The position numbers and the translations under genes are program-made. This document shows positions 43,802 through 45,017 of a DNA stretch of 64,000 bases, piece by piece. Each line of letters starts with the position of its first letter. Within the stretch, counting starts at the first letter, position 1. Below the pieces are notes generated by a model that made no database searches, was not told where the DNA came from, and saw only the letters and a list, made by a program, of their open reading frames with translations. This stretch comes from an uncultured Verrucomicrobiae bacterium. Lineage in GTDB: Bacteria; Verrucomicrobiota; Verrucomicrobiia; Chthoniobacterales; Xiphinematobacteraceae. Location of the stretch: the NCBI GenBank assembly GCA_963706715.1, contig CAVPNI010000003.1, forward strand, positions 96,001 to 160,000, read 5' to 3'.

Positions 43802-45015
43802 AGTTTACTTCCGGCAGGTTTGTTGTCCTTGGGCTCCCGAATCACTAAAACTGACCAATTATTGTCCGGAGAGAGGTGATTACGTCCTCCGGAGCCATCT
43901 CCGGTAATAGCGAAGAATGCAGGGGTTATGGAGTTTGGCGGCATGGATCCGGAGGCATCGACGATGGATTGGGTGTAAATCCGCTCTCCTAGCTTTATGG
44001 CCAAGTCCTGAGGTCTGTAGCTTATTGTAGTCTTTGATTGGTTAATCAGATCTAATCCAAATACGAGTGTGTCTTGAGGTTCAAAGCGCCAGACGTTTTT
44101 GATTTTTACGGTAAAGCCTTGGTAGGGATTTTCGATGTTAGGAGAGACGTGTAATACTCCCTCAAGAGCATCCGAATGCTGCGCTTTAAAGAGGCTGTAT
44201 GCTTTAGCTTTGTCTAATAAGGAAAGGAGTTGTGAAGGGTTAATAGTCCGTCCGGTGCGATTTTTATCAGGATTGAAGAGTGTGAGTGTTCTAAAAGGGG
44301 CATCGCTTGCAATCAGGTGGAAGATATAGGCTTTGCGGTTAAAGATAATGGTGAGGTAGTCTTCCGCTCCTTTTTCGAGCGCTCGGAGTGTCACGTAATA
44401 GTTTCCGGGTAGAAAGGAGATGAGGAAATTGGCGTTAGGCTGCTCTTGGGTGGCAATGGATTTTCCGTAAAGGGCGGAGATTTCAGAAGGAAATAGAATG
44501 GTCGTTGTTCCCGCTTCCCAAGCTATCGGGACTTCGTAAACGATGTGCTCGTCCAAGGGCTTCTGGATGATGGAGCTTGCCTGTAAGGGCTGGACAGATG
44601 CGATAAAAGCAACGAAAATTATGGCATGAAATTGACAGCCGCGTTTAGACAAGAAGGAAAATGGTGGGCAGCTTGGATCAAGGAGATTCCGGGAGTCAAT
44701 TCTCAGGGAGAGACTCTTGAAGAGGCACGTGAGAATTTGAAAGATGCCTTGCAGATGGTTTTGGAAGCCAATCGAGAGCTTTCCGAAAGAGAAAATCAGC
44801 CAACTCAAAAAGAGGAAATGCTGATTGCGTGAAGCGCTCTGATCTCGAAAAACATCTGAAACGCAACGGTTGTCAGCTTTACCGTGAAGGAAGCAAACAT
44901 TCCATTTGGTGGAATCCTGCCAATCACAAGACAAGTGCGGTTCCACGGCATCGGGAGATAAATAATTATACTGTGCGAGGCATCTGTCGCTCCCTGGAAA
45001 TTCTGGAGATTTCAT
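43798..45015 (-). CDS. VirB9/TrbG/TraK-like exported protein with a hicBA cassette nested in its 5' end
   Basis: Signal-like HAIIFVAFIASVQPLQA, TTTILFPSEI; lies between virB8 and virB10. Confidence 0.7.
   Translation of the reverse strand: MKSPEFPGSDRCLAQYNYLSPDAVEPHLSCDWQDSTKWNVCFLHGKADNRCVSDVFRDQSASRNQHFLFLSWLIFSFGKLSIGFQNHLQGIFQILTCLFKSLSLRIDSRNLLDPSCPPFSFLSKRGCQFHAIIFVAFIASVQPLQASSIIQKPLDEHIVYEVPIAWEAGTTTILFPSEISALYGKSIATQEQPNANFLISFLPGNYYVTLRALEKGAEDYLTIIFNRKAYIFHLIASDAPFRTLTLFNPDKNRTGRTINPSQLLSLLDKAKAYSLFKAQHSDALEGVLHVSPNIENPYQGFTVKIKNVWRFEPQDTLVFGLDLINQSKTTISYRPQDLAIKLGERIYTQSIVDASGSMPPNSITPAFFAITGDGSGGRNHLSPDNNWSVLVIREPKDNKPAGSKL
44626..44832 (+). CDS. hicB: HicB-family antitoxin (short)
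   Basis: WIKEIPGVNSQGETLEEARENLKDAL. Confidence 0.92.
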   Translation: MKLTAAFRQEGKWWAAWIKEIPGVNSQGETLEEARENLKDALQMVLEANRELSERENQPTQKEEMLIA

Positions 45016-45017
45016 AA
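44829..45017 (+). CDS. hicA: HicA-family mRNA interferase
   Basis: LKRNGC...REGSKHSIW...VPRHREI. Confidence 0.92.
   Translation: MKRSDLEKHLKRNGCQLYREGSKHSIWWNPANHKTSAVPRHREINNYTVRGICRSLEILEIS

Follow-up and report, generated by a model that had tools for sequence, protein, structure and literature searches.

How can a complete toxin–antitoxin (TA) operon lie within the reading frame of a gene on the opposite strand without closing that frame? The question is raised by a locus in a 64,000-nucleotide (nt) stretch of an uncultured Verrucomicrobiae genome (contig CAVPNI010000003.1, positions 96,001 to 160,000; G000:C3:96001-160000), hereafter the window, where a hicBA-type pair occupies the beginning of a gene resembling virB9 of type IV secretion systems (T4SS). 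Comparison with a paralogous cluster and with related genomes suggests that VirB9 is translated from an ATG coupled to the virB8 stop codon and straight through the antisense cassette, and that selection keeps this frame open, a reading to which we give a probability of about 0.65.

Organisation of the nested locus

The initial annotation of this region described a hicBA cassette nested antisense and in frame within the start of virB9, and every coordinate that it gave was verified against the sequence and the list of open reading frames (ORFs). The pair (Table 1) does lie antisense within the virB9-like ORF, whose frame runs through 126 codons without a stop; the frame is unbroken, and no transposase is attached to the pair. 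The hicB stop and the hicA start overlap in GTGA at 44829-44832, 4 nt common to both genes. The TAA stop of hicA overlaps the virB9 ATG and abuts the virB8 TGA, and the virB9 ATG (45015-45013) in turn overlaps the TGA (45014-45012) of the upstream VirB8-like ORF.

A paralogous cluster on the same contig (G000:C3:476751-483143; L017) carries a second, different cassette at the same place. By blastn within the genome, positions 39760-44598 are 99.6% identical between window and paralog and positions 45012-45910 are 98.0% identical; in place of the variable module between them the paralog has 647 base pairs with an 86-amino-acid (aa) DUF433 gene (E=1.5e-10) and a 131-aa DUF5615-like gene (E=5e-4, below the cut-off). 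This cassette is also antisense and ends directly at the virB8 stop; here too no stop follows the coupled ATG in the virB9 frame, and the resulting 483-aa ORF includes an extension of 225 codons. The frame relations are equal in the two cassettes, the first gene having offset 0 (codon-aligned) and the second offset 1. Homology between window and paralog breaks at 44598, just past the -35 box of the TA promoter-like site, and at 45012, the virB8 stop, and not at 44634. The variable module would therefore include the -10 box and the spacer, that is, the core of the VirB9 signal peptide.

Openness of the virB9 frame

No stop in the virB9 frame was found across the cassette in any of the seven loci tested (the window, L017 and, from related genomes, L053, L089, L090, L061 and L003). 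This was compared with several null models. Antisense to ORFs of 250 aa or more in the same genome, stretches of 126 codons were stop-free in 3.8%, 1.0% or 0.5% of cases, depending on the frame, and stretches of 225 codons in 0.7%, 0.02% or 0.07%. When the TA proteins were kept and synonymous codons redrawn, the window cassette was open in 18 of 5000 draws, with probabilities of 0.007 under genome codon usage and 0.002 under locus codon usage, and the paralog cassette in 0 of 4000-5000. For the relatives, resampling with locus codon usage gave probabilities of an open frame of 0.03 (L053), 0.011 (L089), 0.024 (L090), 0.03 (L061) and 0.07 (L003). Permutation of codons within genes, the most conservative null, gave 0.045 for the window and 0.0055 for L017.

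Free-standing pairs served as a further comparison, the initial annotation having noted that its reading would fall if hicBA antisense frames were commonly open. They are not. The corresponding frame is open in three of 20 free-standing homologous hicBA pairs of the same gene order (L146 counted among them despite poor boundaries), and the closest of these pairs (66-71% HicB identity) have 3, 3 and 1 stops in it. Stretches of 390 nt at 29 further hicA loci had 5/87 and 7/87 of their antisense frames open; L130, with stops inside the match, was left out of this count.

The two genes of each cassette differ in the codons and codon junctions that they lack. In the codon-aligned genes, hicB and the DUF433 gene, there are no TTA, CTA or TCA codons (none among the 7 leucine and 2 serine codons of hicB), and the offset partners have 1 and 8. 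The junction of xTT, xCT or xTC before A, which in an offset gene gives a stop in the virB9 frame, occurs at 0/19 opportunities in hicA and 0/41 in the DUF5615-like gene, and 3 and 4 times in the aligned genes. Each cassette gene is thereby seen, at the level of its codons, to avoid only the pattern that would stop virB9. The openness of the frame looks selected rather than lucky, and both strands appear to be under protein-coding constraint, the TA strand as judged by its domain matches and the virB9 strand by frame- and context-specific avoidance of stops.

Table 1. Features of the nested locus, in window coordinates
Feature	Position	Strand	Remarks
Sigma-70-like promoter TGGACA-17-GAAAAT	44591-44619	+	ends 6 nt before hicB ATG; leaderless-type
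hicB-like antitoxin gene	44626-44832	+	68-aa ORF; codon-aligned antisense to virB9 frame
hicA toxin gene	44829-45017	+	62-aa ORF; GTG start
VirB9-like ORF	43798-45015	-	405 aa; opens with 126-codon stretch antisense to hicBA
VirB9 signal-peptide-like segment	about 44652-44578	-	mature part from about 44577
VirB8-like gene	45012-45650	-	212 aa; N-terminal helix and NTF2-like domain
TrbI/VirB10-like gene	42746-43801	-	PF03743 E=7.5e-9; overlaps virB9 stop
Variable module	44599-45011		sole stretch not common to window and paralogous cluster

Recurrence, remnants and empty alleles in relatives

Relatives were compared at 106 loci, taken from 61 related genomes and from a scan of species representatives (metagenome-assembled genomes of Verrucomicrobia, Chthoniobacterales and Terrimicrobiaceae). 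As a rule, 46-86 nt lie between the virB8 stop and mature virB9, and virB9 starts at the coupled ATG; the empty alleles use this same virB8-coupled start. Embedded hicBA was found in L053, L089 and L090 (L138 and L139 are the same places as L053 and L090), with HicB 73-75% and HicA 75-77% identical to the proteins of the window; the VirB9 of these three loci is only about 60% identical. The DUF433/DUF5615 pair is embedded in L061 and also present in L057.

Decayed forms occur as well. L003 has a decayed hicB-like gene, L052 a remnant of the DUF433 type, and L076 an in-frame remnant with a 66-codon extension from which the TA genes have been lost. In the closest short alleles, L018 and L022, the antisense of hicB codons 1-12 is retained and a 351-nt deletion is in frame; both are most readily understood as in-frame deletion derivatives, not virgin sites. 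All four remnant alleles without TA genes (L018, L022, L076 and L003) stay in frame. On a VirB9 tree of 59 rows, from which L024 (short) and the frameshifted L089 and L090 were left out, the embedded forms fall in three clades of Chthoniobacterales. Two of these hold both cassette types or their remnants, and the arrangement therefore appears to be old and exchangeable.

These results bear on the origin that the initial annotation had proposed, a recent insertion into a palindrome bounded by a duplicated ATT. Excision of 44634-45011 (378 nt, 126 codons) would indeed restore the palindrome ATGAAATTTCAT and an ORF that begins MKFH and continues into a hydrophobic segment, and ATT is found at 44631-44633 and again at 45009-45011. 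As a target-site duplication this repeat was dropped, since the breakpoints with the paralog lie elsewhere and a 3-nt repeat is expected by chance. An allele starting ATGAAATTTCAC (MKFH...) was found, as anticipated, in L005/L030; these belong to a distant clade, however, with VirB9 only 63% identical. With the arrangement present in three VirB9 clades, exchangeable with DUF433/DUF5615 and differently bounded, and with the closest short alleles being deletion derivatives, recent insertion did not hold up, and the embedded module is better regarded as old and exchangeable than as a recent arrival in this genome.

One protein in the database (P0002; 405 aa) is 85% identical to the VirB9-like ORF over its full length and has the same extension, 80% identical over residues 1-147. 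No other protein was recovered with the extension peptide of the window type, and only itself with that of the L017 type, in a database search that needs shared 5-mers and so sets no bound on prevalence. The full length kept in both the window and P0002 would be expected if the extension were itself functional, as a cytoplasmic pro-domain or membrane anchor of VirB9 under whose constraint the TA genes evolved. Conservation of hicBA on the other strand explains this identity, however, and the two unrelated cassettes give unrelated extensions on an otherwise 99%-identical VirB9. Remnants are cut to 30-66 codons, empty alleles have no extension, and the extension has no Pfam match; we regard a function of its own as very improbable.

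Where VirB9 starts

Among the in-frame ATG, GTG and TTG codons of the window, L017, L003, L053 and L076, a Shine–Dalgarno-like motif precedes only the virB8-coupled ATG; in the window this is the ribosome-binding motif GAGGA/AAGG within the last virB8 codons. This, together with the remnants that keep the frame, points to translation that begins at the coupled ATG and continues across the cassette.

VirB9 could alternatively be made from an internal start just ahead of the signal sequence, either a TTG at 44652 or a non-canonical codon, the upstream frame being kept open for the transit of ribosomes from virB8. Such transit would prevent Rho-dependent polarity on the operon mRNA or keep that mRNA from pairing with the TA transcript, and the long fusion protein would be a by-product. 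The initial annotation had suggested this TTG as a rescue start. The codon is present in frame at 44652-44650, 26 codons before the mature start, and would yield a signal peptide of normal length, yet it lacks a Shine–Dalgarno-like motif and has no counterpart in relatives. In none of these does virB9 begin with a conserved TTG: counting upstream from mature VirB9, a canonical in-frame start is first reached after 101 (L017), 60 (L003) and 45 (L053) codons. Selection for openness is equally expected if ribosome transit matters; relief of polarity alone, on the other hand, needs no virB9 frame, and the remnants are in frame all the same. We consider an internal start unlikely.

A putative promoter and signal peptide on the same bases

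The sigma-70-like site TGGACA-17-GAAAAT is the only promoter-like site in 44300-45300, a number which alone does not exceed the 1.0 expected by chance. Hexamers, spacing and distance to the ATG are the same in all eight embedded cassettes, whichever their type, and the three closest free-standing hicBA pairs have TGGACA followed by a spacing of 16-17 nt. This sharing between embedded and free-standing cassettes suggests that the TA mRNA is leaderless and that its promoter is part of the cassette. The opposite strand of the same bases encodes the hydrophobic core and the c-region of the VirB9 signal sequence.

No terminator-like site was found on the + strand after hicA within virB8. On the - strand, a promoter-like site ATTACA-18-TATAAT (10/12 matches) at 45745-45716 precedes the virB8 start by 66 nt and could transcribe virB8-virB9-virB10 now that insertion sequences (ISs) have entered the cluster.

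Identity of the TA pair

HicAB modules are type II TA systems in which HicA is an mRNA interferase and HicB the antitoxin; many HicB proteins, though not all, have a C-terminal DNA-binding domain for autoregulation. The HicA of the window matches Pfam HicA_toxin (PF07927) with E=1.4e-12 and 47.9 bits (cut-off 27), its residues 4-57 aligning to profile positions 2-57 of 58. The HicB match is marginal (UPF0150, E=2e-6, 28 bits against a cut-off of 27.3), and HicB_lk falls just under its cut-off of 27 (E=6e-6, 26.8 bits). At 68 aa, this HicB spans only profile positions 11-63 of 123 and is a short form without the DNA-binding C-terminal domain. With two small, co-oriented and overlapping genes and a promoter-like site of its own, the pair has the layout of a type II TA operon, and it probably functions as one.

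A DNA-level search of the same genome for further copies of the cassette, proposed in the initial annotation, recovered only the cassette itself. At the protein level the genome has one other HicA-family gene (G000:C3:710637-710789) and a HicB-like fragment of 27 residues with a stop (G000:C2:451618-451698).

Identity of the virB8-, virB9- and virB10-like genes

The names virB9 and virB8 used in the initial annotation found no match in Pfam, NCBIfam or PDB profile searches, and are carried instead by predicted fold and by synteny with the TrbI/VirB10-like gene (PF03743, 36.1 bits against a cut-off of 35). The gene order is VirB8-like, VirB9-like, TrbI/VirB10-like, with overlapping stops and starts, and ahead of the conserved start of mature VirB9 lies a hydrophobic segment that ends in an A-x-A-like motif.

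The AlphaFold model of the mature VirB9-like part (predicted local distance difference test, pLDDT, 84) has two beta-sandwich domains resembling the VirB9 fold of the outer-membrane core. Its best Foldseek matches are T4SS outer-membrane core chains: 7spb_C1 (E=9e-11), 7oko_3 (4.5e-9), the DotH-containing 7muc (3e-8), 8rt6_B (TrwF/VirB9, 5e-7), 6gyb_B (Xanthomonas VirB9, 1e-6) and 6x6j (CagX, 1e-3). These span the F and pED208 cores and Dot/Icm, with modest TM-scores of 0.3-0.5. The modelling shows a VirB9-like predicted fold for this ORF.

The VirB8-like protein was modelled with pLDDT 79 as a long N-terminal helix followed by an NTF2-like domain. VirB8-type structures match at E 2e-4 to 6e-3, among them TraM (3wz3, 1.9e-4), CagV (1.2e-3), DotI, PrgL and those of R388, Rickettsia and Bartonella, yet ARC6/PARC6 rank first and Tim44 also appears, all of them being NTF2-like folds. 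The modelled fold of the 212-aa ORF may be VirB8-like.

Genomic surroundings and the cargo hotspot

The surroundings include genes for a VirB4-like ATPase and, next to tgt, for a tyrosine integrase, as well as an AbiE pair and a weak VirB5-type match; this places the locus in what appears to be an integrated element resembling an integrative conjugative element (ICE). The integrase gene (58827-59918, -) lies beside tgt (60195-61358) and housekeeping genes, a likely end of the T4SS-carrying element. The AbiE pair, an AbiEii toxin and AbiEi antitoxin (type IV TA/abortive infection), is at 35891-37370 (-) in the same element. Downstream of the T4SS genes, DNA with internal repeats (37418-41244, -) encodes three hexapeptide/beta-solenoid proteins (YdcK-repeat, bactofilin-like), with 94% identity to the paralogous cluster.

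Near-identical mobile elements are dense in the genome, and the window has several: ISL3-type copies at 30354-31868, 46224-47728 and 49189-50703, a DDE_3/IS630-type copy at 47985-49142, IS701 at 52358-53501 and a group II intron reverse transcriptase at 33744-35820. Between virB8 and the T4SS genes upstream of it lie three IS copies. Each mobile element is present in roughly 7 to 35 copies of 96-100% identity across the four contigs of the genome. Congeners include 0.9-Mb genomes, which suggests a lineage undergoing genome reduction. A look-up of sequencing runs gave five DNA runs, with shares of 0.23 or less, and no RNA run.

In twelve of the relatives (L035, L060, L078, L084, L049, L063, L046, L059, L077, L086, L082 and L041) the region up to ~2.6 kb upstream of virB9 is a cargo hotspot. 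Its genes are of addiction and defence types: Fic/DOC (4 loci), ABC-3C components, GmrSD, DUF4007, a KAP NTPase, a PLD nuclease, a DncV-like nucleotidyltransferase, and proteins with Piwi (prokaryotic Argonaute) and TIR domains. Searched over up to 3 kb upstream (less at contig ends), about 22 loci showed no virB8. A conserved hairpin (consensus TTGCTCCCAACCGGGAGCA, 7-8 bp stem) lies about 25-60 nt upstream of virB9's own ATG in all 21 loci inspected, whatever the cargo (L040, L044, L046, L049, L050, L058, L059, L062-L064, L070, L077, L078, L086, L041, L054, L033-L035, L037 and L060). It could be a boundary, a terminator or a recombination site; it was sought in the window and is absent there.

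Discussion

We propose that the region is a compact two-strand coding unit inside an integrated, ICE-like T4SS element. On one strand, hicB-hicA would be transcribed from its own leaderless-type promoter. On the other, translation of virB9 would begin at the virB8-coupled ATG and cross the whole TA operon antisense, over 126 codons in the window and 225 in the paralog, after which ribosomes would reach the signal sequence encoded opposite the TA promoter and then mature VirB9. As there seems to be no other usable start ahead of the signal sequence, any stop in this frame would abolish VirB9, and selection would purge stops. In this way the TA genes would be limited to codons, and to junctions between codons, that give no stop on the opposite strand. 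Cleavage of the signal sequence would presumably remove the extension. The TA pair is most likely addiction or stabilising cargo of the element, and the module (promoter spacer, -10 box and TA genes) would be exchanged between elements, probably by recombination in the conserved flanks. What we infer from patterns in the DNA is that translation starts at the coupled ATG, that the product is cleaved and exported, and that the promoter is active; the leaderless mRNA, TA function and the route of exchange are likewise deduced.

Several points weigh against this proposal. The case for translation of the extension is one of sequence evolution. The tested loci are partly non-independent (L053, L089 and L090 lie close to one another, and the window has common ancestry with L003), and codon permutation is weak in the higher-GC relatives (0.07-0.22) and uninformative (1.0) for L061 and L003. 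In L052 a stop is followed by a new ATG, in L057 the frame is broken by 3 stops, and in L089 and L090 a frameshift lies later in mature virB9. The in-frame TTG of the window belongs here too. For Sec export, 126-225 additional residues ahead of the signal sequence are unusual and could be an obstacle. Finally, the T4SS cluster of the window is interrupted by IS copies (46224-50697 and 52358-53491), so the present-day function of this copy is uncertain.

Some of these points, notably the IS interruptions, the frameshifts of L089 and L090 and the broken extension of L057, would also fit virB9 copies that are simply non-functional once they bear a cassette, the TA pair sitting in a cargo hotspot and the open frame being a leftover or an accident of composition. 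The virB8/virB9 junction is such a hotspot in relatives, and chance does leave the frame open in 3/20 free-standing pairs. What speaks against dead genes is that all seven loci are free of stops, each with a null probability of 0.07 or below, that frame-specific avoidance is seen in both genes of both cassette types, and that the mature VirB9 ORF is intact and conserved in the window, L017, L003, L053 and P0002. L144 (G265:C10, 1200-1800) offers a case in which virB9 has been lost: its remnant junction consists of the virB8 tail, a hicB 73% identical to that of the window, a frameshifted hicA and the signal sequence, virB9 is cut off right after the first conserved residues, and the antisense frame has acquired 2 stops. 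We judge that the cassette-bearing copies are quite improbably dead, and retain translation through the cassette under selection as the preferred reading.

The pair resembles known HicAB modules in its HicA_toxin domain over the full profile, its HicB/UPF0150-like partner and the 4-nt gene overlap usual in coupled TA operons. It differs in that the antitoxin gene comes first, that the 68-aa HicB lacks the DNA-binding half used for autoregulation, that the promoter is of the leaderless type and that the whole operon lies inside an opposite-strand ORF. It is already known that ICEs carry TA pairs and that cargo gathers in hotspots between transfer genes. In SXT/R391 ICEs, hotspots between conserved transfer genes carry variable cargo, defence systems included, and the virB8/virB9 junction of the relatives is comparably varied; here, however, alleles with larger cargo give virB9 its own start behind the conserved hairpin, and in-frame read-through appears confined to the small TA cassettes. 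The mosAT module of SXT is a TA pair that stabilises an ICE (PMC2654960). The present pair is likewise carried by a conjugative or integrative element with an integrase and T4SS genes, whereas mosAT is intergenic and the present pair lies wholly antisense within the translated 5' part of a T4SS structural gene and can be swapped with a second TA family at precisely this place.

Two further comparisons concern the second strand and the extension. Antisense overlapping protein-coding genes have been proposed in bacteria, for example short ORFs in E. coli O157:H7, where, as here, both strands are apparently protein-coding over the same bases. The present overlap differs in its length of 126-225 codons, with two recognisable domain families on one strand, and in being seen with two cassette types, three clades, frame-specific stop avoidance and matched free-standing controls. 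The extended signal peptide region (ESPR) of autotransporters, about 25 conserved residues, also adds N-terminal residues ahead of the hydrophobic core of a secretion signal; the extension here is 100-200 residues, with a sequence that depends on the cassette. In the literature as far as it was accessible to us, we found no description of a TA operon embedded antisense in a T4SS gene, which is no proof that none is in print. What appears to be new, in that we could not find it in this literature, is the antisense embedding of an entire TA operon in the leader that a T4SS gene translates, where promoter and signal peptide occupy the same bases.

A bolder possibility is that small TA operons act as plug-in modules for a translated virB9 leader, their leaderless promoter serving on the opposite strand as the VirB9 signal peptide, with head-on transcription of the T4SS and TA operons coupling conjugation to addiction, a tie that the initial annotation had also raised. 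We put this forward tentatively and hold it to be doubtful. If it were true, switching on the T4SS would mechanically throttle the supply of antitoxin, or firing of the TA operon would throttle virB9-virB10; addiction, growth arrest or abortive defence would be tied to conjugation, a new regulatory logic built on obligate two-strand coding.

Long antisense overlaps in bacteria are disputed, mostly for weak evidence of selection on the second frame. This locus may offer an unusually clean natural test, having two unrelated TA families in one gene, free-standing controls, in-frame remnants and frame-specific stop avoidance. It also carries a warning for annotation, as gene callers will give either the 405-aa ORF or the TA pair and not both. 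One stretch of DNA here would combine a promoter on one strand with a secretion signal on the opposite strand, and the locus would show how a packed transfer operon can take up selfish or defence cargo and yet keep its coupled downstream gene.

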